From: an uncultured Chloroflexia bacterium
GTDB lineage: Bacteria; Chloroflexota; Anaerolineae; Fen-1058
Direction: 5' to 3'
NCBI GenBank assembly: GCA_963844815.1
Contig: CAWJPR010000001.1
Coordinates: 8,096 to 72,095, forward strand
DNA: 64,000 nucleotides
Shown: in pieces, positions 11,242 through 36,398 of the stretch
Layout: each line of letters starts with the position of its first letter
Position numbering within the stretch: the stretch's first letter is position 1
Position numbers and translations under genes: made by a program
The notes under the pieces: model-generated
Told to the model about the DNA's origin: nothing
Databases searched by the model: none
What the model saw: only the letters and a program-made list of their open reading frames with translations

Positions 11242-11334
11242 GCAGGCCCGGGAGTATTCGGCAACGGGGGAACATAAAGTGTTTCCATTATTCACTACAT
11301 GTTGTGCTATGCTGTTGTCGTAAAGGAGCGAACG

Positions 11335-12297
11335 ATGAGCAAAGGCTTGAGCCGCGCCGAGCGACTGCGCGAGATGGAACGGCTATATCTTGAGCATGGA
11401 TGGACCGACATTGAGATGGCTGAGCGGTTAGGCGTAGACCGCACGACGGTTTACAAGGATCGCGATCTGCTCTCCAGCGAGTGTCCAATTGAGCCTGACG
11501 ATGACGGGCGCTACAAAATCAACCGGACACGTTACCTGTCCCACATCCGGGTCAACGCCTACGAAGCACTGGCGCTGTATTTGCCCGCGCGGCGCGCGGC
11601 GCGACAGACGTTGGTGGCGCAGCCCCATATCGCCAAGGGGCTGGAGAAGTTAGCCGTTGCGCTCAAGCGGCCCATGACTGAGCGCCTAGTGAAAGCGGCG
11701 AACATCATCCTGGCACAGGCGGCTCTGCCTGAACGAGTGGCAATTATGGAAACGGTGACACGCGGCTGGATCGAACAGCGCAAGATTCGCCTCGCTTACC
11801 GAGGCTTGCGCGCGAGGCAGACCGGCCACCACATCGTCAAACCTTATCTGATCGAGCCGTCACTCTGGAGTGATGGATCATACGTGATCGGCCACAGCGA
11901 TTATTTTGACGACATCGCAGTGTTCAAGATCGAGCGGATTGAATCTGCCGAACTGAAACTTGAGACGTTTGAGATTCCAGAGGATTTCGACGAGCAGCGT
12001 ATGCTGCGCTACGCGTGGGGCATCTGGTCGAGCGAAGAAGAACCGGTCACCGTGCGGCTTAAGTTCAGCGGGCATGAAGCCATCACGCGCATGAAGGAAA
12101 CCATCTGGCATCCGCTCCAGGCCAAGCCTCTGGACCAGCCCGACGGCGACTGCCTCTGGGAAGCGCCCATCGCCGAATGGCAGGAGATGCTGCCGTGGGT
12201 GAGAGGGTGGGGGGCCGATGTGGAGGTGATCGCACCGGAGGAGTTGAGAGAGAAGTTGATGCGCGAAGCGCAGAAGATGGCGGAGCTGTATCAGGTG
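11335..12297 (+). CDS. HTH-WYL-domain transcriptional regulator (CRISPR-associated WYL type); the reading frame continues without a stop into cas3
   Basis: RBS aaggag; N-terminal HTH (EMAERLGVDRTTVYKDRDLL). WYL core (EPSLWSDGSYVIGHSDYFDDIAVFKIERI). Characteristic C-terminal VEVIAPEELREKLMREAQKMAELYQ. Host-like GC (~58-60%). Confidence 0.7.
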
Positions 12298-14760
12298 ATG
12301 GAAATGAAAAAACAACTGATTGCCCACATCCGCGAAAAAGACAAAGCGCGTCAGTCTCTTATCGAGCATTTGACAGTAGTTTCCAAACTTGCAGGGCAGT
12401 TTGCCAGCAAGATTGGGTTGAAAGAGGCAGGTGAAATTCTCGGACTGCTCCATGATTTTGGCAAGGCAAGCGAACAGTTTCAGAATTATTTGCTGTCTGG
12501 AGCCGGTGAGAAAAATCCAGACGCAGATGGCTACATTGACCCAGAGGCAATGCGTGGAAAAATTGACCACTCAACCGCAGGCGCGCAGGTGCTTTACGAA
12601 AATCTTTGGAGCAAAGGGCAGAAGGAAAAAATCGCCGCGCAGGTGCTCACCCTATGTGTCGCTTCCCATCACTCAGGGTTGATTGACTGCCTTGCGCCAG
12701 ACGGAGAAAACAACTTTAAGCGGCGCATGGAAAAAACGGATAAAGATACTCACAAGTCAGAGGCATTATCAAATTTACAGGGAATCGAAACCGCGTTCAA
12801 AGATCTACTCTCGAAAAATGTTGTAGACCAAATCGTGACAAAACTGCAAAGCCTGAAAGAGGAATCCAATGAATCACAGACCAACCTAAATTTCAAAGCG
12901 GGATTGCTTGTCCGTTTTCTGCTCAGTTGCCTGATCGACGCAGACAGGCTCGACACTGCCGATTTTGAGTCCCCAGGCAATGTCCGCATCCGTAACTATG
13001 GGCAATATCACCCTTGGGAGATTTTAATTGAGCGCTTGGAAGACAGGTTAAAGGCGTTTGAGAAAAAGAACGAAGTGGATGAATTGCGCGCCCAGGTGTC
13101 GCAAGCCTGCTTTGAGTTTGCCGTGAAGCCAAAGGGCATTTATCAGTTGACCGTCCCGACAGGCGGCGGCAAGACGCTGGCAAGCTTGCGGTTTGCGTTG
13201 AACCATGCCAGAGAGCACTCAATGGAAAGAGTGTTTTACGTTATTCCTTACACTCTCCATCATTGACCAGAACGCCGAAGAAATCAGAAAGATTTTGGAA
13301 GATACGGACAAAAACGGCAAGTATTTGGATAGAGTGGTTCTTGAACACCACTCCAATTTGATGCCCGAAGAAGAAAGTTACAGGCAGAACCTGCTGGCGG
13401 AAAACTGGGACGCGCCGGTTGTCCTCACGACACAAGTTCAATTTCTGGAAGCGTTATTTGGCGGGCATACGCGCAGCCCGCGCAGAATGCACCAGTTGGC
13501 AAACTCGGTGATTATTTTGGATGAAGTGCAGACCGATCCCAATCAACATGATTCACATGTTGAACCTTGCGCTTCGTTTTCTCGTTCATACTGCGGCGCG
13601 ACAGTCGTGCTTTGTACTGCAACACAGCCGCCGCTTGACAAGCTGGAAAATCCCTATCGCGCTTTAATCATCACCCCGAGCAGCGCATCATCCAGAATGA
13701 GGGAACTATTCGAGCGGTTGAAGCGTGTCGAAGCGTTTGATAAGCGCAAACTCGGTGGATGGAGCGAGGAGGAAGTGGCGGAATTGGCTGAGAGAGCAAT
13801 TGCAAGAAAAAGGCAGCGTGCTGATTGTGGTCAACACCGAGAATCGGCCAAAGCGCTGTATCAAGCCAATCGAACAGGAAAATCGCAGGCGTGCAATCTA
13901 TCATCTCAGCACGAACATGTGTCCTACCCACCGCCTGAATGTACTGAATGAAATCAAAGACGAAACTTAAAGCCGAAAAGAAGCCTGTGATTTGCGTCAG
14001 CACGCAACTCATCGAAGCGGGCGTGGATATTGACTTCGGCGCGGTTATCCGCTATCTGGCAGGGCTGGATTCGATTGCCCAATCAGCAGGGCGGTGCAAC
14101 CGTCACGGAGTGCGCGAGGGATTGGGGAGCGTCTGGGTGGTCAATCCACAGGAGGAAAATATCGAAAGATTGCAGGACATCAAGATCGGCGTGAACAAGC
14201 CCAACGCGTGTTAGACGAATTCGAGAAGAACCCCGAATAGTTTGGAAATGAGCGAATTGGCCTGTACGCGATTGCCGCGTATTACAAGTATTACTACTAC
14301 GAACGAAGAAATGAAATGGAATATCCAGTCGGCGAAAGTCGTCCGCGGAACAAGATGATACGTTGTTCAACTTGCTCTCGACAAATACGCTTTCAGTGGA
14401 CGCATACAAGAGAATTCATAAAGCCGTGCCCGAAATCCTTTTGGGCAGTCATTTCAAACCGCCGCAAAGGAATTTCGGGTGATTGACTCAGCCACGCGGG
14501 GCGTGATCGTTCCATACAAGGAAGGTGATGAGATTATCAAAGACCTGTGCGGCGCGTTTGAGTTGGACAAGCAGGGTAAACTACTCAAAAGGGCGCAGCG
14601 GTATTCCGTTAATTTGTTTCCAACATGAATTCGAAAATTGGCTAAAGTGGGAGCCATCCATGAGGTACAGGCAGGAACAGGGGTTTACTATCTCAATGAA
14701 GCAATACTACAGTGAAGAGTTTGGCTGGAGCGATGAGCCAGTCAATGACATGAAGTTCTT
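12298..14760 (+). pseudogene. cas3: cas3 (type I-C HD nuclease/helicase), fragmented by at least 4 frameshifts
   Basis: HD domain (HLTVVSKLAGQFASKIGLKEAGEILGLLHDFGK, CVASHHSG, CLIDADR). Walker [55 protein letters not shown] and a Cas3 C-terminal domain lie in successive different frames (13205.., 13725.., 13948.., 14525..). GC ~48%. Confidence 0.8.
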
Positions 14761-14790
14761 ATCGGCGAGCGCACTTCAAATTCAACCGAA

Positions 14791-15413
14791 ATGCAACATG
14801 AATGTCGTGGTCGAAAACAATCGAAGTCTAATCAAAACAGCGTAACGTTCAAGGTGTGGGGCAGGTACGCCCTGTTCACCGACCCGCTGACCCGCATTGG
14901 CGGCGAAAAATACTCCTACCAAATTCCCACATACGAGGCATTGAAAGGAATTTTGAGCTCGGTGTATTGGAAACCGACCATCGTATGGGTGATCGACAAG
15001 GTGAGGGTGATGAAGCCCATCCGCACGCAGACCCGCAGCGCAAAGCCAATAAAGTATTCGCTGGCGGAAATGACCTTTCAATTTATACCTATCTCTCGGA
15101 TGTCGAGTATCAGGTGCAGGCGCATTTCGAGTGGAATGAAAATCGCTAAGACCTGGCGCATGACAGCAATGAGAACAAGCATTTCTACATTGCACGGCGG
15201 ATGATCGAGCGCGGCGGCAGAAGGGATGTGTTTCTCGGAACACGGGAATGCCAGGGATATGTCGAGCCGTGTAAATTTGGCGAAAAGGGCTTTTACGACG
15301 ACTATGGCGAAATGTCCTTCGGGCTGATGTTTCACGGCTTTGATTATCCCGATGAAGGCAAGCTGGCGATTTCTGGCACGCTTCTGGCGGCCGAAAATGG
15401 ATTGACGGCGTAA
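14791..15413 (+). pseudogene. cas5: cas5c (Cas5d), at least 2 frameshifts
   Basis: [60 protein letters not shown], then [25 protein letters not shown] and [17 protein letters not shown] in other frames. Confidence 0.8.
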
Positions 15414-15544
15414 TCCAGTTATCCGCCCCGAGGGATTGCAAAGGATTCGCAAGTTTGTGCGCCCGATGAAATCCAATCCGCCCGCCACGATTGGACTAGA
15501 AGAAGAAGGTTGCTCGAAGGCTACAGGAAGGGAGGGCGTGAGAT

Positions 15545-17392
15545 GAACTGGAGCAAAGTTTGTATGAGACATACGAGAATTGTCAAAACATGATTGGCTA
15601 TACCCAGATGACAATGATGTTCCGCTTCTTCCAATATGTCACATTACTGCAAAAGGCGCAGATTGAAATAGTGATAGATGGCAAAGGCGATTTTCGAGAG
15701 AGCACGAGTGTACACAAAGAAGACTCAAGGACAATTATTCCCTGCACCGAAAGCTCTGGCGGCAGCAGAGCTGGGAGTAAGCCGAGCGCATCCCTTATGT
15801 GACAAATTGCAGTACCTTGCTGGCTGATTACCTGACTACGGCGGAGTAAGAGACTCCTAGTTTTGCCAAAGATCCAATGAACCATATGGAATTTTATTAT
15901 CGCTGACTGAATGGTGTCATTCGCAATACACCCACCCAAAAGCCTGTGCAGTTTAGCAATATACCAAAAGGAAACTCTGAATGCAAGATCTAGTAAATCA
16001 CAGGATTTTGCTTGCTAGATGCAAGTGGAAAATTATTGTCCAAAGATAGGTGAAAAGAGAGAAAAATCCAAGGATATCTTCGATTCGTGGTTCTGACCAC
16101 TGCAAGATAGTGCAGGTGCTTTATACGGTGGGAAGTGGAAATTCCTGGACGATTCGAATCGAGAGTCTGGAGCGATGAAGTAATCCAACTTTGGGAATAG
16201 TTGGACTAACTTACTACTTAAACACAAAGATGAAAGAGACATTTGTCTAGGTACCGGGCGAGAAAAATTTATCGCTGACCACCATCCCGAAATACATCCG
16301 AACGATGGGGATAATGCCAAGATAATTTCACCAAACGATACTAGTGGATTCACTTTCCGGGACGTTTCTCTACAGTCAAGACCAAGCGGCGTGGGGCTGG
16401 AGACGACACAAAAAGCCCATTTATGCCCTTCGCTGGCTAATTAGCCGACAAGGCTATTTAGGCAGGAGATTTGGCGGTTGTCGCTTGGGCATTTCGGGCG
16501 CAAACCTGCCCCAGCCGACAGATGATCCATTATCCGGCCCTGATATGGCGACTTACCGCCTGAAGAAAGCAAAGACGGCTGAACTGCTCAGGATATTGGC
16601 CATTCAGACTGAAAAAGAAAATCGCTGGATATCGTCAAGAGATCGGTGAACGTAAGATGTAGTTGTCATGGCAGTGGATTCTGCCACACCGGGGCGGTTG
16701 GCCATCGTCTATTACCGTGCCCTGAAGGCTCCGAGTTCCTGCGAGCGAATTGAAGACTGGCATGAATCTTGTGCTTGGCGGCACATATCGCTCGATCAAG
16801 TTCAGGATCAACAAAGCGGAAAACTAAAAATGTTATATCCCTTTTCATTGGTGCTCCTGCCCCAGCCGATATTGCGGAAGCCGTCCTATGGACGCCGCCT
16901 AGATGACAAACTCCGGAAAGCCAGATCAAACGCCTGCTCCCCTGTATCGTGGACGGTCAGCCCATCCCGCGTGATCTTGTTGAGTCGGTGGTCAGGCGGG
17001 CGTCCAATCGGGCGGGAATCAGAAACCCGGATGAAAAAAATACGTGGGATGGAGATTTACATGGAAGAAAACTCTCAGCATCGCCTGTGCATTATTCGAA
17101 AACACAAAGATGGAAAGGAGAATTACGAGATGGCACTCGATGAACAGAAAGACGAGAGATATCTCTATGGAAGGCTACTCGCCTTGCGGAAAATCCTTGA
17201 AGAATGGGCGTTAAACAAAGCCAAGGAAAATCGGCCGACGAATGCTGCCCGATTACATGCAACGATTCTTCGGAACACCCATATCAGTACATGGGAACGA
17301 TCGAATGATCGCTTACTCCCTACAAGGCGAGGCTTGGCGGAAAGTCAAATAACGCCAGCGAATGATAGATGAAGTTATTGCTTCTTCAATCT
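15545..17392 (+). pseudogene. cas8c: cas8c (Csd1) remnant, heavily degraded (stops in all frames, AT-rich middle)
   Basis: N-terminus MNWSK..YETYENC. C-terminal blocks CIVDGQPIPRDLVESVVRRASNRAG and YEMALDEQKDERYLYGRLLALRKILEEWAL...RPTNAARLHATILRNT lie in two different frames. 15800-16350 is ~40-45% GC with no long ORF. Confidence 0.65.
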
Positions 17393-17539
17393 GAAGATTT
17401 TACAACGATAAGCGGTTAAGCGGAGAATTTTTGATTAGGCTACCATTGCCAACGAGAATATCTACGCAGGAACACCCGACGAATTGCAAATAAAGAAAAT
17501 AACAATCTGAAACAACCAGATAATTCAACCATATCATGA

Positions 17540-18450
17540 TAAGGAGAATTTACCATGACTACCTTAATCGAATAAAATTGACTTTGCCGTAATTATTTGT
17601 GTCAACAATGCCAATCCCAACGGCGACCCGCTCAACGGCAACCGCCCGCGTACCAATTACGAAGGCCTCGGCGAAATGTCCGATGTTTCCATCAAGCGCA
17701 AAATCCGAAACCGCCTGATGGATATGGGCAAATCCGATCTTTGTTCAATCCGATGACAACCGAGTGGACGATTATCGAAGTCTGCGTGACGGGCAGAAGC
17801 GACGCTCAAGGGTGTTGACCAGGACAAAAAGAAATATCGGGAAGCGGCCTGCAAGCATGGCTGGATGTGCGCGCTTTTGGGCAGGTCTTTGCGTTCAAGG
17901 CAAAAAGGGAAGAAGAGCGAAGGTGAAGAGGAAGCGATGGCGTTTCCATTCCCGTACGTGGTCCTGTTTCAATTCATCCTGCTTTTTCAGTGGCTTCCTG
18001 TGCTGGACCGCGTAACCAGCATTCAAATCACCAAAAGCGTCAGCGGCGAAGCCGGCGGAAAAGCGCGGCTCGGACACCATGGGTATGAAGCACCGTGTTG
18101 ATCACGGCGTCTATGTCTTCTATGGCAGCATGAATCCGCAGCTTGCCACAAAAACGGGATTTTCGGATGAGGATGCCGAAGCCATCAAAGAGGCATTGAG
18201 GACACTGTTCCGCAATGACGCCTCGTCTGCGAGGCCTGAAGGAAGCATGGAAGTTTACAAAGTGTATTGGTGGAAGCATAACAACCACAATGGGCAATAT
18301 TCTTCAGCCAAAATACACCGTTTGCTTGATGTGACAGTGAAGCCCAAGAGTAGACAGAACCAAAGAGTATCGGAGATTACGACATTACTCTGAACGAACT
18401 GCCTGGCCTGGGATGTGAAGTGATAGATGGCGATAGGAAATTGCTTCGAC
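17540..18450 (+). pseudogene. cas7: cas7c (Csd2), frameshifts and an early stop
   Basis: KIDFAVIICVNNANPNGDPLNGNRPRTNYEGLGEMSDVSIKRKIRNRLMDMG; later GMKHRVDHGVYVFYGSMNPQLATKTGFSDEDAEAIKEALRTLFRNDASSARPEGSMEV in another frame. The ATG at 17558 is followed by a stop 6 codons later. Confidence 0.75.
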
Positions 18451-18469
18451 CAATTTGGCGCTCGCAATG

Positions 18470-19110
18470 ACAGGATAATGAAGTCCGAATACACCCCGAA
18501 GACCTGCTGCCGCTTTCGGGCATCCAGCACTTCCTGTTCTGCCGCCGGCAGTGGGCGTTGATCCATGTTGAGCGGCAGTGGCAGGAGAACGCGCTCACTG
18601 CCGAAGGCCGGCTTCATGCACAAGCGCATGGATGATCCTTCTTCACCGAAATGCGGAACGGGGTGATCACGGCGCGGGCGGTGCCGGTCGCCTCGTACCG
18701 TCTGGGGCTGTCGGGCGTGTGCGATGTGGTCGAGTTCACCGAGTCGCCGGAAGGTGTTAAGCTGCCGGGACGGAAGGACTGTACCTGCCTGCGCCGGTGG
18801 AATACAAACGCGGCAAGGAAAAACACGATCACAGCGACGAGGCGCAGCTATGCGCCCAGGCCATGTGCCTGGAAGAAATGCTGTCGGTGACCATCCCCAG
18901 AGGATATCTGTATCTACGGCGAGACCCGCCACCGGGTTGAGGTGGAGTTGACGCTGAGCTGCGGAGCCTGGTGCAGGACATGGCAGATGAAATGCATGGC
19001 TATTTCAGCGCGGCTACACCCCCGCGTCAGACCGTCCAAGGCCTGCCGTTCCTGTTCGCTGGCCGATATCTGCCTGCCGAGTTTGCAGGAGAAAGGATGC
19101 ATGCCAGCTT
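18470..19110 (+). pseudogene. cas4: cas4 (RecB-like nuclease with C-terminal Cys cluster), multiple frameshifts
   Basis: [77 protein letters not shown] and C..CSLADICLP are spread over three frames. Confidence 0.7.
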
Positions 19111-19124
19111 CGAAATACATCCGA

Positions 19125-20190
19125 CAGCAGATCGAGAGCACGCTTAAGACTCATGAAGAAACTTGGCAATGTTCTGTATGTCACCACTCCCGAAGCCTAT
19201 CTCTCCCTGGATGGCGAAAATGTCGTCGTCAAGAAGGAACTGAGCATGGCTCTTCGACGCGCCTGCCACTGCACAACCTGGAAAACATCGTCTGCTTCAC
19301 TTAGCAGGGAGCCAGCCCGGCGTTGATGGGCGCCTGCGCCGATCGTAATATCGGTTTGTGTTTCCTCACCCCCAACGGAAAATTCCAGGCGCGGGTCACC
19401 GGCAAGGTAAAGGGCAATGTGCTGCTGCGCAAGAAACAGTACGAATGTCTCGGAGAAGGACAGACAGAGCGTCCCAATTGCCGCCTCCTTCCTGCTGGGC
19501 AAGATCGCCAACTGCCGCAAGGTGATCGAACGCGCCGTCCGCGATCATGCCATGCTGGTGGACGTACCGGCGCTCACCAGGCGCTCCGCCTGTCTGAAGG
19601 AGACGCTGCGCGCCATCCCACAGTGTAAATCGATCGGCGAACTGATGGGCTTCGAAGGCAGCGCGGCGAAAATCTACTTTGGCGTGTTCGATCAGCTGAT
19701 CCTGCAGCAGCGCGAGGAGTTTTTTTCAAGGAACGCTCCCGCCGTCCGCCGCTGGACAACATGAACTAGCTTGCTTTCGTTCCTGTATACCCTGTTGACG
19801 AACGAAGTCGCTTCTGCCCTGGAAACGGTGGGGCTGGACCCCTATGTTGGCTTTTTGCATCAGGACCGTCCTGGGCGTCCTTCGCTGGCGCTGGACTTGA
19901 TGGAAGAGCTGCGCCTGTCTTTGCCGACCGCCTGGCGTTGTCACTGGTGAACCGTAAACAGATCACTGGCAAAGGATTCACACAAAAGGAAAGCGGCGGC
20001 ATCCTGATGGACGATGAGACCCGAAAAGCGGTATTGACCGCCTGGCAGGAGAGAAAAAAAGAGGAGATCCTGCATCCTTATCTCAAGGAACAGATTCCCT
20101 TTGGATTGATCCCCCATGTCCAGGCGATGCTGCTGGCGCGCTATCTGCGCGGCGACCTGGACGCCTATCCGCCATTCTTCTGGAGTTAGC
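19125..20190 (+). pseudogene. cas1: cas1 (type I-C), multiple frameshifts
   Basis: MPASKYIRQQIESTLKTHE.., [104 protein letters not shown] and a terminal YPPFFWS sit in at least 5 frame segments. Confidence 0.85.
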
Positions 20191-20206
20191 GATGCGATGA
20201 TGGTTC

Positions 20207-20566
20207 TTGATCACATATGATGTGAACACGGAAACCGGCCGGGCAAAAAGCGTCTGCGCAAAGTGGCCAAAGAAATGTCAGAATTATGGTCAGCGCGTGC
20301 AGAACTCGGTCTTTGAGTGTCTGATCGACCCGGCCCGTCTGAAGCAATTGCAGAAGTCCCCTGGCAAAATCATCGATACCGAAAAGGATAGCTTACGTTA
20401 TTACTACCTGGGAGATCACTGGAACACACGGGTCGAGCATGTGGCGCCAAAGCCAGGCTTGACCTGGAGGGAACGATCATTGCCTGAAAGTCCGTTCTGC
20501 GAACCCGAAGTTCACATGAAAACCGGGAACGGTTCGCAGGGAATTTGCACTTTAACAACCTGATAT
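20207..20566 (+). pseudogene. cas2: cas2, two closely spaced frameshifts in the N-terminal third
   Basis: MMVLITYDVNTETGR, then KKRLRKVAKEM in the +2 frame, then CQNYGQRVQNSVFECLIDPARL..DSLRYYYLGDHWNTRVEHV back in the original frame. Confidence 0.75.
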
Positions 20567-20665
20567 TTCTCAATCCACAGTGATTTTCTGTTTATTCTTG
20601 ACTTTACCTGTATGATGAAAGCACAATATCTGGGGGGCAGGTGGCCTGCTGCACCAGATATTGCG
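20567..20665 (+). promoter_or_regulatory. CRISPR leader (cas2-proximal, AT-richer)
   Basis: ~100 nt between cas2 and the first repeat: tatttctcaatccacagtgattttctgtttattcttgactttacctgtatgatgaaagc.... Confidence 0.5.
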
Positions 20666-21348
20666 GTCGCCCCTCATGCGAGGGGCGTGGATTGAAACAT
20701 TCGTCGAGGCGCTGGCGGAAAAGGTGCACATGTCGCCCCTCATGCGAGGGGCGTGGATTGAAACCCATCGACAAGGACAACTGCTACGAGATCGAGTCGC
20801 CCCTCATGCGAGGGGCGTGGATTGAAACAGCCAGGCCCAGCGTAATGGCAATGCCGCGCCAGTCGCCCCTCATGCGAGGGGCGTGGATTGAAACCTCAGT
20901 CAGCCCGGTGTCGCCGCTGGTCATCAGGTCGCCCCTCATGCGAGGGGCGTGGATTGAAACACGCCCAACCAGCGGGCGCGGTCGCGCACGAGATGTCGCC
21001 CCTCATGCGAGGGGCGTGGATTGAAACATGTGCTCCTGGTCGTTTCCGCATCTGAGGAAAGGTCGCCCCTCATGCGAGGGGCGTGGATTGAAACCCTAGT
21101 GTCGGTGATCTTTGGCGCGCCAAAATGCCGGTCGCCCCTCATGCGAGGGGCGTGGATTGAAACAGCGGGACGAGCGGCCATGTTACACCGTCAACTGATG
21201 TCGCCCCTCATGCGAGGGGCGTGGATTGAAACACGGAGAGCAGCATGCCTAATAAGAATTCGTTCCGTCGCCCCTCATGCGAGGGGCGTGGATTGAAACC
21301 CGTCCAGCGCCATGTCACGGGTTAGGGAAGCCAGTCGCCCCTCATGCG
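20666..21348 (+). CRISPR. CRISPR array part 1: 10 full 33-nt repeats plus a 15-nt repeat stub interrupted by the IS; type I-C-like repeat GTCGCCCCTCATGCGAGGGGCGTGGATTGAAAC
   Basis: Repeats at 20666, 20732, 20796, ... 21268; spacers 31-36 nt. The repeat ends GTGGATTGAAAC with an internal GCCCCTC/GAGGGGC stem. The final unit is truncated after ...CTCATGCG at 21348. Confidence 0.95.
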
Positions 21349-21565
21349 TGTTTTTGTCAAGCGAAAAGTAGGCCATTTGATGATCGAAAATGGAGCCAGA
21401 GGGTATCAGTTAACCGTAATGTGTTGATCGAAAACAGGGCCAGTTGCTGATCGAAAAGAGGGCCACGGGAGCTACGGCGAGGCTGGCCGCCGTCGTCGCC
21501 GTAGGGGCTGTGGACATGTGGGCAACTGGGCTGTTGCAGTTGTCCACATGTCCACAACCCAGACC

Positions 21566-22330
21566 TCACGGGCCGTGCCCGTTGGTCCGGGCCGCTTGTT
21601 GCTGTCGTTGCCGAAAGCGATAGGACTCACCGATAAATTCCAGGATATGGGCGCGATGCGTGAGCCGATCGAGCAAAGCGCCCGTCAAACGTTCATCGCC
21701 AAAGACCTGCGTCCAATCGGTAAAGCGCAAATTGGTGGTGATAATCAACGCCACGCGTTCGTAGAGTGCCGAGCAGACCTGAAACAACAGCTGCGCACCG
21801 CTGGCCGTAAACGGGATAAAGCCGAGTTCATCGATCACCACCACGCTGTTGAGCAAGCCGTTCAAAACTTTGGGGAGTTGGTGTTTGTCCTGAGCCAGCA
21901 GGAGTTCATTGACCAAGCCAGCGGCATTGTAGAAGCGGACGCGGCGACCTTGGCGACAGGCGGCGAGCGCCAACCCGGTCGCGAGATGGGTTTTCCCTAG
22001 GCCGGGATTGCCGATCAAGATTAAGGGCTCGGCCTGCTCGATGTAAGCGCCCCGCGCCAGATCCAATACGGTCAGTTTAGCCGGGCTGGTCAAGCAACTG
22101 AAGTCGAAATCGGCCAAGTCTTTGAGCACGGGCAAGTGGGCGGCCCTGATGCAACGTGTTTGAAGGTTCTTGTCGCGTTGCATCACTTCGAGTTCCGCCA
22201 GCGCCAGCAGGTAGTGCTCGTAGTCATGATGATTGCGGGTGGCGTCTTCGGCCACGACCCGATGTTGGCGCACGAAGGTTGGCAAGCGCAGTTGTTTCAG
22301 ATAGGTGTCGAGCAGCAAGGTTTCGGCCAT
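21566..22330 (-). CDS. istB: IS21 helper ATPase IstB
   Basis: 254 aa; Walker A LIGNPGLGKTHLATGLA; IS21 IstB signature blocks. Confidence 0.9.
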   Translation of the reverse strand: MAETLLLDTYLKQLRLPTFVRQHRVVAEDATRNHHDYEHYLLALAELEVMQRDKNLQTRCIRAAHLPVLKDLADFDFSCLTSPAKLTVLDLARGAYIEQAEPLILIGNPGLGKTHLATGLALAACRQGRRVRFYNAAGLVNELLLAQDKHQLPKVLNGLLNSVVVIDELGFIPFTASGAQLLFQVCSALYERVALIITTNLRFTDWTQVFGDERLTGALLDRLTHRAHILEFIGESYRFRQRQQQAARTNGHGP

Positions 22331-22333
22331 GGC

Positions 22334-23918
22334 TCACCGCCCGACCTGTAGGAGTTGATCATAGCGCTGCAGATCGAGCGTTTGGTTGCCGACCTGAGCC
22401 AACTGCGGGCGATCCGTCAAATCCAAGGCGGCGGCAACGGCATATCTTCGCGCTGCTGATGCAGGCACAAGCGAATCCCATCCAGATCGGGCAGCCCAGC
22501 GCGAGGGCGCGTTGAATGGCCTGTTCGATCTGGGCAGCGGAATAATCGCGATGCAGTTTCAATACCCGGATGAATTCGCGCACACCACGACCCTCAGGCC
22601 AGGTCGCGCGTAACTGCGCCAGCAGTTGTTCATACACCGGCGGCCAGGTCTTGCGCCAGGCGCGCAGCGGACGGGCGTGCTCAAAAGCCCCCGGCCGTTG
22701 TTCCAGGAGCGGCAGATAGTGCTGTGCGTCAAACAGATCCTGGTCGCGCTCATAACAGCGCGAATGGCGCGCGATAAGTTGCTGGTCGTCCAGAATTCGA
22801 TCCGAAACGGATACGCCTTGAGCGTCAACGTCGCACGCGCGGCTTCGACCGGCACCGAGTAACGATTGGTTTCAAACGTCACCTGGCTGTACGGATTCAG
22901 TGCCACGGTGAGCGTGACACAACAGTCAAAGTCATGATCCGGGAGCGGCCCGCAGGAGGGCCTGTTCTTGCGCAAAGGCCTCGGCGATTGTCCGCGTCCA
23001 ACCATCGGGTTGCCGCTGGCCATCGGCTGCACAGGCGGCACGCAGGTGCGCGTTGAGCGCCTCCAACGAGGCGAAGGCGGGACAGCCCGCCAGAAAGTTG
23101 CGCCGGGCATAGCCAACCCCATGTTCCACACCACCTTTTTCGTGGCCTTCGCCAGGGGTGCAGAAGCGGTCTCAAACAAGTAGTGACTGCGAAACTGGAT
23201 AAAGCTCGGATTCAAGTCTCGTTCGTGCCCCAGCAGCACGCGGGTGACCGCGCTGCCGAGATTGTCGTAAGTCAAAGTGTGGGGCACCCCGCCGAAAAAG
23301 TGAAAGGCGTGGACATGACCATCAAAGAACGATTCTTGTTTCTGGGAAGGAAAGGCCATCACAAACAGTCGGCGCGAATAGCACAACCGCATGACAAACA
23401 ACTGCACCGTGATCCGTTCCCCTGCCACTCCACTTCGGCCTCGCCCCAATCGACCTGGGCGTCGCGACCGGGATCAAATTCAAGCGGGAGATAACCAGCG
23501 GACGACGCCGGGCCTGACGCACCCGCCCGATGTAGCCCCGCACCGTCGATTCACCACCCGTGAAGCCGTCCGCCTGCAATTTGGTGAAGATCACGTGGCT
23601 CGTGTAGCGTTGCTTGCGCGGCAAGGTCTCGTTGTCAGCCAGCCACTGATCGATCTGAGCCTTCACCGGTCCCAACATCGGCGCCGACCGCGGCGCGGTC
23701 AACTGATATTTCGGCATCTCCGCCTCCTCGACCGCCTTGTCAACCGTCGCCCGCGAGTGCCCCATTTCACGGGCGATCTGCCGTTTCGATTTCTGTTCCA
23801 CATAGTACGCCCGCCGAATGCGTTCACGTTCATCCACAGGAATCATCTCCTCGCCTCCGCTAAAGTGGGTCGCCCAACGATAGCAGAGGATGGCGGTGGC
23901 CCTGTTTTCAACCATCAA
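22334..23918 (-). pseudogene. istA: IS21 transposase IstA, at least 3 frameshifts
   Basis: N-terminal HTH (ERIRRAYYVEQKSKRQIAREMGHSRATVDKAV). Downstream DDE-region blocks GGVPHTLTYDNLGSAV, HEKGGVEHGVGYARRNFL (ORF 22932..23129) and NRYSVPVEAA are in different frames. Confidence 0.8.
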
Positions 23919-23957
23919 TTTCTGAGCAGGTGGCCTACTTTTAGAATATCAAAAACA

Positions 23958-26202
23958 CATGCGAGGGGCGTGGATTGAAACATCCTGTCATCGCCTGTGC
24001 TGACCGGCCATAGGGTCGCCCCTCATGCGAGGGGCGTGGATTGAAACAATAACGGAGTTCGCAAGAACATCAATCTGACCGGTCGCCCCTCATGCGAGGG
24101 GCGTGGATTGAAACTGAGCAGCCCCGCGTCCTGCCGCTAGAATGCACCCGTCGCCCCTCATGCGAGGGGCGTGGATTGAAACTGCTTGAATCGATGAAGG
24201 GCAAATTCGGCGGCATGTCGCCCCTCATGCGAGGGGCGTGGATTGAAACCCGTTCGAGCCGTTCACCATCAGCAAGAAACTCCTGTCGCCCCTCATGCGA
24301 GGGGCGTGGATTGAAACATCGGGCGTGACGTTCGCCAATAAACCCGATGGGCGCCCGGGTCGCCCCTCATGCGAGGGGCGTGGATTGAAACAATCATCCC
24401 AGCGAAACGCAGGGCGCGTATCGCCTGTCGCCCCTCATGCGAGGGGCGTGGATTGAAACCGAGAGTCGCAGCGCGTCGAGTAGATCGGTTACTGGTCGCC
24501 CCTCATGCGAGGGGCGTGGATTGAAACCACCTCGATCCCGCTGATGTGCGTTGGGAAACAGTCGCCCCTCATGCGAGGGGCGTGGATTGAAACTTTACGC
24601 TGCTCTTGCGCCATGTTGCCCCGTTCGTGTCGCCCCTCATGCGAGGGGCGTGGATTGAAACAGCAATTTGTCGCCGGCGACGCAGCAGACGATTGGTCGC
24701 CCCTCGCATGGAGGGGCGTGGATTGAAACTTTCTGGAACGGCCGCGCATCGCACCAGGATCGCGTCGCCCCTCATGCGAGGGGCGTGGATTGAAACACAT
24801 ACCGTTACGCTCGTAAACGTCGATACGCTTCTGTCGCCCCTCATGCGAGGGGCGTGGATTGAAACCTTCGACATCGGTCTTAAAGTATGGCCTGACATCG
24901 TCGCCCCTCATGCGAGGGGCGTGGATTGAAACGTTCGCGCTCTGTTGCGTGGTCTGTGGCGTCATGTCGCCCCTCATGCGAGGGGCGTGGATTGAAACCC
25001 CCGTGTAGGGGTCAAAGGTCGCCCGGATCGGGCGTCGCCCCTCATGCGAGGGGCGTGGATTGAAACCCCCGTGTAGGGGTCAAAGGTCGCCCGGATGGGC
25101 GTCGCCCCTCATGCGAGGGGCGTGGATTGAAACAGCTTGCGCAATCTGTCTATGACTCTCTGAAGCGTCGCCCCTCATGCGAGGGGCGTGGATTGAAACG
25201 GCTTACAATCCTGTCTCGTCCATAGGGTATCGCGTCGCCCCTCATGCGAGGGGCGTGGATTGAAACTGTGCGCGGCGCTCTAGCGCCTGCTGCCATCGGG
25301 TCGCCCCTCATGCGAGGGGCGTGGATTGAAACCGCGCGCAGCGCGCACCAGCGGGGCGGGGACAAGTCGCCCCTCATGCGAGGGGCGTGGATTGAAACCG
25401 CCGCTCTGCCGTTTCCGTGCCGCTTTGTCGTGTCGCCCCTCATGCGAGGGGCGTGGATTGAAACAACGCCGAGCTCTCACCGCAGGAACTCGAAGACGTC
25501 GCCCCTCATGCGAGGGGCGTGGATTGAAACGCAATTGTCTACCATCAACAGCGCAATTGAAACTTGTCGCCCCTCATGCGAGGGGCGTGGATTGAAACGC
25601 GCTGGAAAAGCGCATCAAATCACACCCGCCTAGTCGCCCCTCATGCGAGGGGCGTGGATTGAAACCTGTCGATGCGGCCGGGGCCTGAATGGGCAGGCCG
25701 TCGCCCCTCATGCGAGGGGCGTGGATTGAAACACAGAGGCGTGAGACGGATGTGGCGGTGCGGCGGAAGTCGCCCCTCATGCGAGGGGCGTGGATTGAAA
25801 CCCACGTCACTCCCCGCCCCCATCACCGCCTTACTGTCGCCCCTCATGCGAGGGGCGTGGATTGAAACGCGGCATGGTCGAGAGCATCGCCGAAGATCGT
25901 GCGTCGCCCCTCATGCGAGGGGCGTGGATTGAAACGCGGCATGGTCGAGTAGCAATCGCGACGATCGTGCGTCGCCCCTCATGCGAGGGGCGTGGATTGA
26001 AACTTCACGCGTTCGGCTGCCAGGCACGCGATCGCGAGTCGCCCCTCATGCGAGGGGCGTGGATTGAAACTGCGGCGTGCAGATTGGTCTCGCGCGGCTT
26101 CGACGTCGCCCCTCATGCGAGGGGCGTGGATTGAAACATCGCGATACGCGACGCTGGAGCAGCTGGCGAGTCGCCCCTCATGCGAGGGGCGTGGATTGAA
26201 AC
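23958..26202 (+). CRISPR. CRISPR array part 2: the remainder of the split repeat plus 33 full repeats. One variant repeat sits at 24696..24729. The last repeat (26170..26202) is perfect
   Basis: Same 33-nt repeat. Adjacent near-identical spacers at ~24999 and ~25067. Adjacent related spacers at 25869 and 25936. The variant repeat GTCGCCCCTCGCATGGAGGGGCGTGGATTGAAAC keeps the stem. Confidence 0.95.
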
Positions 26203-26584: not shown

Positions 26585-26612
26585 TCGGGATCCGGCGCGG
26601 AGAAAAACAGCC

Positions 26613-26668
26613 GACGACTGACAACTGACTACTGACCACTGACCACTGACTACTGACACTGACTACGG
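26613..26668. repeat. Heptanucleotide tandem array (TGACNAC x8)
   Basis: tgacaac tgactac tgaccac tgaccac tgactac tgacac tgactac. Confidence 0.7.
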
Positions 26669-28795: not shown

Positions 28796-29866
28796 TCATC
28801 CCTTCATCCCTTCATCCTCTGCCGCGTCCCTGGCCGAGCGCCCGAACGTCTCCAACTGATCGCGCACCTTCTCCGCCGCCGTGTACGGCGCGTAAATCCG
28901 GCGCGTGGTGCTGATGTCGGCGTGCCCCAGATACGCTTGCAGCACGTCCAGATCCATGCCTTCGTGTAATAACTGCTGCGCGCGGAAATGCCGGAAGGCG
29001 TGCGGCGAGGTGCCTTTGAACAGCCCCAGTTCACTTGCCGCCTTCTTCACCACCGCCCACAACGTGCCGCGCCCCAGCGTCTTGCCCACGTCGCGCCCGT
29101 GCGACACAAACAGCCCCGGCGATCGATCGCCGATCCGATCGCGCTCCCGGCAGTAGGCCGCAATCGCTTGCCGCGCCTCCTTCGTCAGCAGCAGCAGGCG
29201 ATCCTTGCTGCCCTTGCCCGTGATGCGCACCTCGGCTTTGCGTCCATCCAACACCATCTCGCGTGTGAGCGAGGCCACTTCGCTGACGCGGCCGGCGGAG
29301 GCATACAGGGTGTGCACGATGGCCCTGGCGCGCAGAATCTGCAGCCGCTTGATCTGTCCGCGTTTCTCGTCGGGAGCGGGCAGGGGGATGGCGTCGTAGT
29401 AAGTCACGATGCGCGGAATGCCGGGATCGGGCTCGCGCCCGGCTCTAACCGTTCGACGCGACCCGCGCGCCGCCTTCAGACGATTGACCGCTTTGCCGAC
29501 CTGAAATCCTGATGACAAATAATCGTTCGCATCGAGCCAGATCAGAAATCGCTTCACGGCGGCGAGGTAGTTCTCCTGCGAAGCGGGCGAATAGCGCCGC
29601 TTCAACAGCCAATCTTGAAATTTCAACAGCAGGTCATCGCGAAACTTCGCCGGCGAATACGGAGAGGGCAGGGGGATGTATTTCGTGTCGGCGATGAATC
29701 TAGCCAGGCCCATCAGCCCAAAGCGATACGTTGCCGCTGTGCGCGGGCTGGTCATGATCGTGGCAATGAAAGCCTCGGCATATTCAATCTCCGGAGCGGG
29801 CTGCGTGCTTTTGTCCGGAGAGGGCTTTCGAGAGGTGGAAGGGCGTTTAGGCTTCGTCTTAGCCAA
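28796..29866 (-). CDS. Tyrosine-type site-specific recombinase/integrase
   Basis: 356 aa; C-terminal catalytic block HAFRHFRAQQLLHEGMDLDVLQAYLGHADISTTRRIYAPY; N-terminal SAM-like domain. Confidence 0.85.
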   Translation of the reverse strand: MAKTKPKRPSTSRKPSPDKSTQPAPEIEYAEAFIATIMTSPRTAATYRFGLMGLARFIADTKYIPLPSPYSPAKFRDDLLLKFQDWLLKRRYSPASQENYLAAVKRFLIWLDANDYLSSGFQVGKAVNRLKAARGSRRTVRAGREPDPGIPRIVTYYDAIPLPAPDEKRGQIKRLQILRARAIVHTLYASAGRVSEVASLTREMVLDGRKAEVRITGKGSKDRLLLLTKEARQAIAAYCRERDRIGDRSPGLFVSHGRDVGKTLGRGTLWAVVKKAASELGLFKGTSPHAFRHFRAQQLLHEGMDLDVLQAYLGHADISTTRRIYAPYTAAEKVRDQLETFGRSARDAAEDEGMKG

Positions 29867-29910
29867 GGTCGATTTCCAAGATTATAGTTTTGGACTTAAG
29901 GTGCATTAAG

Positions 29911-30407
29911 TCATATTATACCAGATTTTGGAAAATTGGTCTTGGCGTGCTCACCGAAGACGATTCCGGCTAATTGGTCGTAGGCTTGTGCGGCCTCTTC
30001 GGCTGAATCGAATAAGACCCGTATTGACATCACCCATTTTCCAGATTTCCTGTCGAACGTTACACCTTTATAACCGGTCTGATTGTTGCGCCCTCTGCTG
30101 CGATTCTGGCGGTTTTGTTGCACCGTCACAAGCCTAAGATTTTCGCGGCGATTGTCCAGCCCATTGCCATTGACATGATCCACCTCAATCCCTCAGGCGC
30201 ATTGAGGATCTCCCGATGCATGAGAATGGTTTTGCCAGATCGATTGTCATTACGCATGGCATAACCGCCATTTCGCCGCTGTGTGCTGACCGCGCTCCAG
30301 TTCCACTGGCTGAGCCATTCGTAGTCTTCATCGCTGACCAGAGCGACCAAACCCCTATTCCTCGAATTGCGCCGTTTTTGCTGCGATAGCGGAATCTGCT
30401 TTGCCAT
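29911..30407 (-). pseudogene. HNH endonuclease with AP2-type DNA-binding domain (homing-endonuclease-like), one frameshift near 30180
   Basis: N-terminal part VALVSDEDYEWLSQWNWS...ILMHREILNAPEGL (30126..30407). C-terminal part DHVNGNGLDNRRENLRLVT + GYKGVTFDRKSGKWVMSIRV...AEEAAQAYDQ (29911..30183) is in another frame. Confidence 0.7.
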
Positions 30408-30585
30408 AGCACTCCTTATAAGGCGAAATTGTAGACCATGGACCTGTATGAGTCAACAAGCGCGCAATTGACAGTGCGTGACGAATCAGTGATAATCGCG
30501 CAGAATGAAATGGGCTTGCCTGTTTAGAACATTTGTGCTATATTTCAATCCAATCTCTAATCGCTAACTTCCAACATCCAGAACC

Positions 30586-31014
30586 ATGAGCCGCATCACA
30601 CATATCGACGGAACACCCACCCAACAACGCAACGCCATCCGCCGCTCCATCGCCGAGATTCTGCGCCGCCTGATGGACAAGCGCAGCATCGACGACGAGA
30701 CGAAGGACATGCTGGCCTTCATCGTGTTCGGCCTGCGCAGCATGGATCAATCGATCGATCAGTCGGCCACCGCCTGGGAAAAGCGCGACTATTATCTCAA
30801 AGCCGATCAGTTCCGCCGCGAATGGTTGTGGCTGCCCGATACCGCCAGACGGCTGGAGGAGATTCTGCGCAGCGGCGATTGGGCCACCGCCCCGATCGAG
30901 CTGGCCGGCCTCTCGGCGCGCTTCTCGGACATCAAGGTCACCACCTACACCAAGCCCCCTGCCCTGTGGCAAGGCGCGTACCAGAAACTGCTGGCCGCCA
31001 AACCTGTCAGGTGA
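30586..31014 (+). CDS. Hypothetical protein; stop lies 23 nt before the dinB start
   Basis: 142 aa, no recognisable domain. Confidence 0.4.
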   Translation: MSRITHIDGTPTQQRNAIRRSIAEILRRLMDKRSIDDETKDMLAFIVFGLRSMDQSIDQSATAWEKRDYYLKADQFRREWLWLPDTARRLEEILRSGDWATAPIELAGLSARFSDIKVTTYTKPPALWQGAYQKLLAAKPVR

Positions 31015-34647: not shown

Positions 34648-36398
34648 ATGCAATCCGAATTCGCCATTCAACTGAAGTGGGCGCCCACGCGCCGCGATGA
34701 TGCCACGCGCTGGATCCTGGCGCACGTGCTGCGCAACAAAATCTGGATCGTGATCATGGTCGTCGGCGCGATCGGCAATGCGGCCGGCGCGGCGCTGGTA
34801 CCGATCTTCATCGGGCAAGCGTTCAACGCGGTCGTCAACACGCCGATCGACTACGACCTCATCGGCTGGGCCGCCCTCGGCATCGTCGTGTCGCAGGTCG
34901 TGCGCGCCGTCTTGCAGCTGGGCCGCAATTTTGGCAGCGAGGTCATCGGGCAGCGGCTGGAGCGCGACACGCGCCACGAACTGTACGCCAGCCTGATCGG
35001 CAAGAGCATGACGTTTCACGATCAGCAGTCCGTGGGCGAAGTGATGGCGCGCGCCACCAACGACGTGCGCGAGATCAACCTGATGCTCAACCCGGGCGTC
35101 AATCTGGTCGTCGGCTCGTTCATGTTTCTGGTAATGCCCATCCTCATCGCGCCGCGCATTTTCCGGCGCTGATCATCACACCGCTGGCCTTTCTGGTATT
35201 GTATTTCATCTCGCTGCAGCGCTATCTGCACGAGTTGAAACCGGCCACCGAATCAGTGCGCAGGCAGTTCGGGAACATGAACGCCACGCTGGCCGAAAAC
35301 ATCGAGGGCATTGAAACGGTCAAGGGAGCCGCGCAGGAGGATCAAGCGATCGAGCGTTTCGAGAGCGGCGCGCGCGCTTATCGTGATGCCTTTGTGCGGC
35401 AGGGCTACATCGAATCGCGGTTCATGCCCCTGCTCTGGCAGGGCCTGGCCTCCGCCGTGGCGCTGGCGCATTCGCTGCTGTTGTACAACCAGGGGCAGAT
35501 CGACGTGGGGCAAGTGGTGGCCTACAACCAACTGATCCTGCTCTTTGGTTTTCCCACGTTCACTTCGGCCTTCGCCTATCCGCAAATCGCCTCCGGCCTG
35601 ACCAGCGCGCGCCGCATCCTGGCGCTGATCAACGCCGAGACGAATCTGGACGAAAACACCGCCGGTTACGCCGGGCGGATGCGCGGCGCGATCCAGTTCG
35701 ATCGCGCGACGCTGCAATATCGATCGGAAGCGCCGGTGCTGGAAGACGTGTCGTTCGAAGTTCAACCTGGCCAGACGGTGGCGCTGGTGGGCCAGACCGG
35801 CTCAGGCAAGACCAGCATCGTCAAGCTGCTCAATCGGATTTACGACGCTGCCGGAGGCCGCGTCTTGATCGACGGCGTGGACGTGCGCGACTGGCAGCTG
35901 GCCGCGCTGCGCTCGCAGATTTCCATCATCGAGCAGGACCTGTTCCTGTTCTCGCGCACGGTGGCGGAGAACATCAAGTTCGGCCATCCCGAGGCGACGC
36001 AGGCACAGGTGGAGGCGGCGGCTAAAGCCGCGCAGGCGCACGACTTCATCTTGAATTTTGCCGACGGCTACAACGCCGTCGTCGGCGAGCGCGGCGTGAC
36101 GTTGTCCGGCGGCCAGCGGCAGCGCCTGGCGCTGGCCCGGGCGCTGCTCACCGATCCCAAGATCCTGATCCTCGACGACGCGACCAGCGCCATCGACAGC
36201 GCCACCGAAGATCAGATTCAGCAGGCGATCTACAACGCCGCGCAGGGACGCACCACCATTCTGATCACCCATCGCCTCTCGCAAATTCGCTGGGCGGATG
36301 TGATCGTCGTGATGAAGCAGGGCCGCGTGGCGGCCATTGGCACGCACGAGGAATTGCTCGAAAAATCTGCCGCCTATCAGCGCATCTTTGCCAGATAG
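34648..36398 (+). CDS. ABC transporter, fused permease/ATP-binding (exporter type), apparent frameshift near 35155
   Basis: TMD ORF 34648..35172 continues as 35199..36398 (Walker [25 protein letters not shown], Walker [13 protein letters not shown]). Confidence 0.7.

Follow-up and report, generated by a model that had tools for sequence, protein, structure and literature searches.

Xanthomonas citri pv. citri has a type I-C CRISPR array (repeat gtcgcgccctcacgggcgcgtggattgaaac) in which an IS21-family (ISRso19-like) element has inserted within a repeat and is flanked by a 6 bp target-site duplication (PMC6889575). The array described here, located in a 64,000-nucleotide stretch of DNA (hereafter, the window), is alike in that an IS21-family element lies in a repeat of a type I-C system between two spacers. 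Similarly, the target duplication in both cases is 6 bp, and the ends of the insertion sequence (IS) start with TGT (PMC6889575).

The repeat GTCGCCCCTCATGCGAGGGGCGTGGATTGAAAC is present in 42 exact plus-strand copies in the window, where none is expected by chance. Together with one variant copy (24697-24730) and one split copy, these form an array of 44 repeats and 43 spacers, in which repeat 11 holds a 2609 bp IS21-family element on the minus strand, leaving 10 spacers upstream and 33 downstream. The parts of the array are as follows.

20564..20665, plus strand: leader, from a promoter scan and alignment with the leaders of three metagenomic arrays having the identical repeat
20666..21333, plus strand: part of the array next to the leader, with repeats 1-10 and their spacers (1-10), from an exact repeat search
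21334..21348, plus strand: 5' 15 nt of repeat 11 (GTCGCCCCTCATGCG), the last 6 nt of which (21343-21348) are the left CATGCG copy of the target-site duplication
23958..23981, plus strand: 3' 24 nt of repeat 11 (CATGCGAGGGGCGTGGATTGAAAC), the first 6 nt of which (23958-23963) are the right CATGCG copy
23982..26202, plus strand: distal part of the array, holding spacers 11-43 and repeats 12-44, one of which is the variant repeat, from a repeat search

Complete repeats are exact in 42 of 43 copies, and the lone variant differs just in the loop. The orientation of the array is based on the order cas2-leader-array, a promoter-like site in the leader (TTGACT-18-CACAAT, 20598-20627), a leader-repeat junction that is conserved relative to the three metagenomic arrays, and a weak plus-strand match to CRISPR-DR9. 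As expected of type I-C systems (repeats of about 32-33 nt), the repeat forms a stem-loop, has a 3' ATTGAAAC handle and lies behind a leader downstream of cas2. Seven metagenomic contigs bear the identical repeat and have no spacers in common with this array, and in L026 this repeat lies downstream of an intact I-C operon; the exact spacer 10-repeat-spacer 11 junction of an uninterrupted allele was absent from the metagenomic contigs searched. None of the spacers has a match elsewhere in the window, beyond the array itself, and autoimmunity is thus no evident cause of inactivation. The original prediction placed the insertion between spacers 10 and 11, which agrees with the split of repeat 11 at 21348/23958, and its count of 33 distal spacers was accurate. 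Its division of the array into 10 and 34 is correct for repeats (10 whole copies, then the split copy and 33 others) but not for spacers, which number 10 and 33.

Comparative analyses define the inserted element and its genes on the minus strand.

21349..23957, minus strand: IS21-family insertion sequence, with ends TGTTTTTG...CAAAAACA that coincide with those of the intact relatives L001 and L002 (inverted repeat I1)
21349..21465, minus strand: istB-side terminal inverted repeat and four subterminal copies, from inverted and direct repeat analysis (I1, I3, I4, D2)
21509..21556, no strand assigned: hairpin with a 20 bp stem directly 3' of istB (inverted repeat I2, fold and alignment)
21566..22330, minus strand: istB, AAA+ ATPase, an open frame of 254 aa (Pfam IstB_IS21, PF01695, 3.4e-66, profile positions 1-238 of 238)
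22334..23846, minus strand: istA, with HTH, rve DDE and Mu-transposase C-like domains (Pfam matches on fragments)
23897..23957, minus strand: istA-side terminal inverted repeat (23931-23957) and two subterminal copies, from repeat analysis

Alignment with the two intact, independent metagenomic relatives fixes both ends of the element to single-base precision. Its length fits the IS21-family span of about 2-2.75 kb, and the target-site duplication, CATGCG, is perfect at both junctions and within the family range of 4-8 bp. When 21349-23963 (the IS plus one copy of the duplication) is excised in silico, an exact repeat is regained, raising the number of exact repeats to 43. The terminal inverted repeats are imperfect, open with 5'-TG (TGTTTTTG..AAAAGTAGGCCA at both ends) and are accompanied by multiple subterminal repeats, as in other IS21 elements. 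At the istB end, the inverted repeat spans 21349-21375, and AAAA(G/C/T)NNGNCCA occurs at 21364-21375, 21387-21398, 21431-21442 and 21454-21465; at the istA end, the two subterminal copies are at 23931-23942 and 23897-23908. Megablast of the IS against known plasmids detected no copies, and a scan of genome contigs with IstB found relatives only at 69% identity or less, from Anaerolineae and other metagenome-assembled genomes.

The gene content is likewise that of the IS21 family: a long istA is followed on the same strand by a short istB, the istA stop and the istB ATG being 3 nt apart. HTH_38, rve and Mu-transpos_C_2 match fragments of istA, and IstA homologues number in the thousands, some bearing the name IS21 family transposase. 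The hairpin 3' of istB is kept in the relatives, with compensatory changes in L002, and the fold of 21495-21600 has an energy of -64.7 kcal/mol (z = -6). The istB frame is open: the -1/-2 indel pair that alignment with the relatives reveals at 21844-21851 is compensated. In contrast to the uninterrupted transposase frame of an autonomous copy, istA as given is broken by seven single-base indels, namely six deletions (23494, 23428, 23170, 22797, 22488 and 22427) and one insertion (22951), located by nucleotide alignment. When stitched, IstA shares 90% identity across 100% of its length with P0001, an intact protein of 528 aa. The original prediction of an IS21-family element is therefore borne out by the ends, inverted repeats, subterminal repeats and both genes. 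Its assignment of istA and istB survives profile HMM search, and the terminal inverted repeats and target-site duplication on which it was made to depend are both present. Additionally, the two flanks, less one CATGCG, rebuild exactly one repeat as it proposed. It also described at least three frameshifts in istA; frameshifts are present, but they number seven.

Upstream of the leader is the cas operon.

11335..20563, plus strand: type I-C cas operon comprising a WYL-cas3 fusion, cas5c, cas8c, cas7, cas4, cas1 and cas2 (NCBIfam partial-profile matches and frameshift-aware alignment)

The gene set cas3-cas5c-cas8c-cas7-cas4-cas1-cas2 without cas6 is that of type I-C, and the genes, cas4 included, lie in the same order as in L026 and L029, where the operons are intact. 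NCBIfam profiles matched the cas open reading frame fragments as Cas5c, Cas8c/Csd1, Cas7/Csd2, Cas1c, Cas2 and, for Cas3, its HD and core domains. L028, a related 33-kb contig, stops short of the array. Frame-disrupting changes were mapped against CP129480.1, whose operon is intact, in a frameshift-aware alignment. As sequenced, the cas frames are not intact: about 60 frameshifting indels lie between 13255 and 20456, along with what appear to be seven in-frame stops, and cas3 is clean over its first 1.9 kb. There are 14 frameshifts in cas3 and 19 in cas8c, and cas2 is least affected. Read literally, the sequence leaves no cas gene free of frameshifts, a point that had earlier been overlooked.

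Across the region, indels of 1-2 nt total about 67 (seven in istA and about 60 in the cas operon). Their contexts match random positions with no homopolymer enrichment, and homopolymer-driven error or slippage was rejected as their source. Their density is patchy, being high at 13255-20456 and 22427-23494 and nearly nil in the first 1.9 kb of cas3, istB and the repeats, a pattern for which a uniform-error model in its simple form fails to account. Most flanking genes are clean, with full-length Pfam matches. In a relative-rate test, istA has 66 lineage-specific substitutions (codon positions 13/10/43), compared to 66 (10/7/49) in an intact relative, and these are third-position biased in both. 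Similarly, the frame-corrected Cas proteins have 105 window-specific versus 92 L029-specific residue changes, which is no excess. Indels without excess substitution in istA or the Cas proteins are the signature of consensus error rather than gene decay. The most likely source of the indels in istA and the cas genes is thus consensus error where a long-read or hybrid assembly was poorly supported, and the IS and cas genes are probably intact in the organism itself. The view that frameshifts had probably rendered the IS immobile is not supported by the sequence, given that the seven istA indels belong to this regional indel-only pattern.

The frameshifts could instead be real. The CRISPR-Cas locus would then be a relic in decay, all of its cas genes pseudogenes, and the IS, itself dead, would have no effect of its own on function, having entered, or been tolerated in, a locus no longer selected for. 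Several features are consistent with this: the indels stand in the deposited record, where the public gene call for Cas3 (P0155) is truncated at 643 aa; the cas island has a foreign GC content of about 49% versus 62%; the cas genes contain the seven in-frame stops; and a split is also seen in at least one neighbouring gene, for an ABC exporter, and so pseudogenes may be frequent in the genome. However, decay is difficult to reconcile with about 67 indels and no excess of substitutions, and the indels are not at homopolymers, unlike those of replication slippage. A single frameshift is sufficient to kill a gene, and 14 in cas3 and 19 in cas8c with conserved protein would be atypical of bacterial pseudogenes. 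Furthermore, by our arithmetic about 12 indels would be expected in the repeats at the density of the cas region, yet they are exact apart from the one loop variant. A relic is accordingly rather unlikely. If the indels were real, the whole CRISPR-Cas system would be dead and the effect of the IS moot.

Under consensus error, the insertion itself would have consequences for the array. The whole repeat folds into an 8 bp stem with a 4-nt loop (-16.8 kcal/mol), and neither half-repeat does. In the proposed mechanism, the IS21-family element, through its istA transposase and istB ATPase helper, would have moved by cut-and-paste into the hairpin loop of repeat 11; the 6 bp duplication is centred on the hairpin dyad. 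The 8 bp hairpin needed by Cas5c cannot form from either half-repeat and so, by the known type I-C mechanism, crRNA 10 would lose its 3' handle and crRNA 11 its 5' processing site. It follows directly from the sequence that the repeat-11 hairpin needed by both crRNAs is lost. As originally described, the IS is antisense to the leader-driven array, with its genes on the minus strand and the array on the plus strand. Expression of spacers 12-43 would require read-through from the leader of 2.6 kb of untranslated antisense IS RNA and is thus probably reduced; silencing of all 33 distal spacers is plausible. A scan of the IS found no terminator-like or outward promoter-like sites above chance, and hence polarity is something that we infer.

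Conversely, the distal array could be unsilenced, by read-through of the IS or by use of an outward or spacer-internal promoter, with just crRNAs 10 and 11 lost. Cryptic promoters within arrays are documented in other organisms (PMC10883916). Within the IS, three plus-strand terminator-like sites were found versus 4.3 expected, and the istA end has a weak -10-like TAGAAT 10 nt inward (23943-23948). However, no sigma-70-like site exceeded the scan threshold at the right end of the IS. Long untranslated, structured RNA is a good substrate for Rho-type polarity, and this would apply to the 2.6 kb of untranslated RNA with its -64.7 kcal/mol structured region. An unsilenced distal array is unlikely. 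An assembly chimera, in which an IS copy from elsewhere was misplaced into the array, is highly improbable: the region is of apparently poor consensus quality, and IS elements and CRISPR arrays are assembly trouble spots, but a misjoin would not give a complete element, a perfect 6 bp duplication and halves summing to one repeat. It is just as hard to credit a localised indel-only process that truly mutated genes gained by horizontal transfer or belonging to mobile elements, here the cas operon and istA, and spared the repeats, istB and most chromosomal neighbours. Taken as a whole, a genuine IS21 insertion in the loop of repeat 11, with loss of crRNAs 10 and 11, reduced distal expression and technical indels, is the explanation that we favour with reasonable, though not strong, confidence.

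For the deposited sequence, the indel-only damage from 13.2 to 23.5 kb, a span of roughly 10 kb that takes in istA and most of the cas operon, is a lesson in data quality, and pseudogene calls in this interval, such as a "dead IS" or "dead CRISPR-Cas", are not to be trusted before a check of the reads. Biologically, the locus is a textbook-clean case of a CRISPR array disrupted by an IS, and its main use is as a strain marker. Mycobacterium tuberculosis IS6110 is of the IS3 family, the CRISPR system in that species is of type III-A, and the target-site duplication differs in length from the 6 bp found here. Nevertheless, as summarised in PMC6889575, IS6110 is alike in lying within repeats or spacers of the direct-repeat (CRISPR) locus, splitting it and serving as a strain marker.

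Overall, the kind of event is already published: an IS21-family insertion with a 6 bp duplication in a type I-C repeat of Xanthomonas citri. The insertion there falls at the repeat's 3' end (duplication tgaaac), and in another strain it is inside a spacer, whereas here it is in the hairpin loop (PMC6889575). Those X. citri sites led to the rejection, as unsupported, of IS21 target specificity for hairpin loops, in a comparison that excluded more distant relatives, whose termini differ. The hosts also differ (Xanthomonas versus a probable Anaerolineae bacterium), as do the IS21-family members. Cyanobacterial Tn7-like transposons that target CRISPR repeats (PMC11837452) are alike as mobile elements at repeats inside arrays but choose their site specifically, of which there is no sign here. 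Insertion of IS elements into cas genes, which inactivates CRISPR-Cas, is similarly a natural off-switch of immunity; those insertions are in cas coding sequences, whereas here the IS is in the array and the cas damage, real or apparent, consists of point indels (PMC10359306). The present locus is one further case of mobile elements disabling immunity.

The CRISPR array is built of a 33-nt repeat, GTCGCCCCTCATGCGAGGGGCGTGGATTGAAAC, of which 42 exact copies lie on the plus strand between 20666 and 26202 (none expected by chance in an exact-match count), together with one variant copy altered in the loop alone (24697-24730) and one split copy, repeat 11. The initial 15 nt of repeat 11 end at 21348, its final 24 nt begin at 23958, and CATGCG flanks the insert on both sides; deletion of 21349-23963 in silico yields 43 exact repeats. 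The array totals 44 repeats and 43 spacers, with the insertion sequence (IS) between spacers 10 and 11 and 33 spacers downstream, and both the split repeat and its place in the array are thus as the original prediction described them. No uninterrupted junction of spacer 10, repeat and spacer 11 was present in the metagenome collection.

Several other features of the array are of note. The variant repeat is 34 nt long, with GCATG in place of the loop ATGC, and keeps the 8-bp stem when folded (-17.6 kcal/mol). Spacer 16 (24318-24358) is 41 nt, all others being 31-36 nt. Two pairs of adjacent spacers are near-duplicates: 24999-25033 and 25067-25100 differ by one indel, and 25869-25902 and 25936-25970 by several indels and one substitution; these may be duplications, variant acquisitions, or further consensus noise. 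Pentanucleotide repeats of the CTGAC type form a short run (26610-26665) about 400 nt past the final CRISPR repeat. Further right, a minus-strand tyrosine recombinase gene (28796-29866), small ORFs (29911-30407), and a local drop in GC content at 30-31 kb may be the remnant of an integrated element (28796-31000).

The insert and the operon upstream of the array comprise the following:

21349-23957, IS21-family insert, 2609 bp, with two minus-strand genes, istA and istB
23846-22334, minus strand, istA, in fragments with HTH, rve and Mu-transposase C-terminal domains
22330-21566, minus strand, istB, an open 254-aa frame matching Pfam IstB_IS21 end to end (3.4e-66)
upstream of the array, type I-C operon (WYL-Cas3 fusion, cas5c, cas8c, cas7, cas4, cas1, cas2), fragmented throughout

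When its fragments are stitched, istA translates into a protein with 90% full-length identity to an intact metagenomic protein of 528 aa, and IstA homologues number in the thousands, some of them named IS21 family transposase. The metagenomic contigs that carry the genes for the two nearest intact proteins (L001 and L002) were aligned with the element at the nucleotide level. The element starts with TGTTTTTG and ends with CAAAAACA, both coinciding exactly with the ends of these relatives. Its termini form an imperfect inverted repeat and are followed by copies of an AAAA-N3-GNCCA motif, of which the istA end has two and the istB end four. The size of the element, its inverted repeats beginning with TG, the several subterminal repeats, and the 6-bp target-site duplication all agree with the IS21 family; the terminal repeats, the duplication, and the istA/istB assignment, on which the original prediction depended, therefore hold. 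Directly 3' of istB, a hairpin with a 20-bp stem (21509-21556) is kept in both relatives, and L002 shows compensatory changes in it (ACAT/ATGT to GGAG/CTCC). The hairpin may act as a terminator or have a structural role in this group of IS elements.

The array lies directly 3' of cas2, after an AT-rich leader, about 100 nt long, that contains the sole promoter-like site of the region in a promoter scan (20598-20627). The leader/first-repeat junction is conserved in three metagenomic arrays with an identical repeat, one of which sits behind an intact type I-C operon (contig L026). The array therefore reads rightward, and the IS genes run antisense to it, as predicted. When folded, the repeat gives a hairpin of 8-bp stem and 4-nt loop (-16.8 kcal/mol), and the duplicated CATGCG is centred on this loop.

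Neither half-repeat forms the hairpin; it is evident that a complete IS21-type element and its 6-bp duplication destroy it in repeat 11. Cas5c is the type I-C protein that recognises the stem-loop of the repeat. By the established type I-C pathway, crRNA 10 would lose its 3' handle and crRNA 11 its upstream cleavage site. Transcription from the leader would have to traverse 2.6 kb of antisense RNA that is not translated and within which lies a conserved and very stable structured region (21495-21600; -64.7 kcal/mol when folded), and spacers 12-43 are for this reason probably under-expressed. A scan of the IS for terminator-like and outward promoter-like sites gave none above chance.

Alignment with intact relatives revealed seven single-base indels in istA (23494, 23428, 23170, 22951, 22797, 22488 and 22427; six deletions and one insertion), where at least three frameshifts had been predicted, and a compensated -1/-2 pair in istB. 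Frameshift-aware alignment with the intact operon of CP129480.1 (L029) required about 60 frameshifts and seven in-frame stops in the cas operon (13255-20456), with a mean frameshift spacing of 122 nt; the first 1.9 kb of cas3 (11335-13254) aligned without any. Cas3 (11299-14767) carries a fused N-terminal HTH/WYL/WCX regulatory module, and intact relatives with this architecture, about 1146 aa in length, are common in Anaerolineae-like genomes. Those relatives of IstA, IstB and Cas3 that carry a name point to a member of the Anaerolineae as the probable host. Flanking genes are long and open with full-length Pfam matches, except for one split ABC exporter, which shows a low indel background outside the CRISPR region. 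The exporter gene (34648-36398) is split by a frameshift near 35172-35199 (about 35.2 kb), with ABC_membrane positions 2-133 in one ORF and 161-271 plus the ATPase domain in the next; similar splitting may affect a glycosyltransferase gene near 54.0 kb.

Ordinary pseudogene decay would bring several substitutions with each indel, and indel-only damage is typical of poorly supported long-read consensus. In a relative-rate comparison of istA with L001, using L002 as outgroup, the window and the intact L001 each have 66 lineage-specific substitutions, distributed over the codon positions as 13/10/43 and 10/7/49 respectively, giving no sign of relaxed selection. Similarly, the frame-corrected Cas proteins show 105 window-specific and 92 L029-specific residue changes (outgroup L026). 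Compared with random positions, the indels lie no nearer to homopolymers, unlike those left by replication slippage. Additionally, at the cas-region indel density the repeats would hold, by our arithmetic, about a dozen indels, yet only 1 of 43 complete repeats is non-canonical, and that one keeps its hairpin. Because substitutions are not in excess, homopolymers are not favoured, and the repeats are nearly all clean, the istA and cas indels are likely to be a technical artefact. Genuine decay of the locus appears unlikely on the same evidence. Two points call for caution. The frameshifts stand in the public record too, as the source's own truncated Cas3 gene call shows (P0155, 643 aa), and uniform error does not account for the clean 5' part of cas3, istB, and repeats; speculatively, this patchiness may stem from polishing that was only partial, in places to which reads from other loci or strains could be mapped.

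Should the cas frameshifts be genuine, the system is already dead and the effect of the IS on the array is moot; should they be artefacts, the element probably remains mobile. The immobility predicted from the istA frameshifts is not upheld, since indels of this kind also run through the cas operon, with no excess of substitutions in istA or the Cas proteins. Overall, the original observation is confirmed and its interpretation partly supported, and the chief value of the result is a sequence-quality warning for 13.2-23.5 kb.

Inactivation of cas genes by IS elements is documented (PMC10359306), and IS insertions are described as frequent in the M. tuberculosis CRISPR locus, as cited in PMC6889575. 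An IS21-family insertion in a type I-C repeat is a kind of event already published: in Xanthomonas citri pv. citri, an ISRso19-like IS21-family element lies inside a type I-C array repeat with a 6-bp duplication, and a second insertion of this element lies within a spacer (PMC6889575). The two cases are alike in IS family, array type, insertion within a repeat, and duplication length. However, the X. citri insertions lie outside the loop (PMC6889575), whereas that in the window is centred on it, and given this difference its dyad-centred position is best read as chance.
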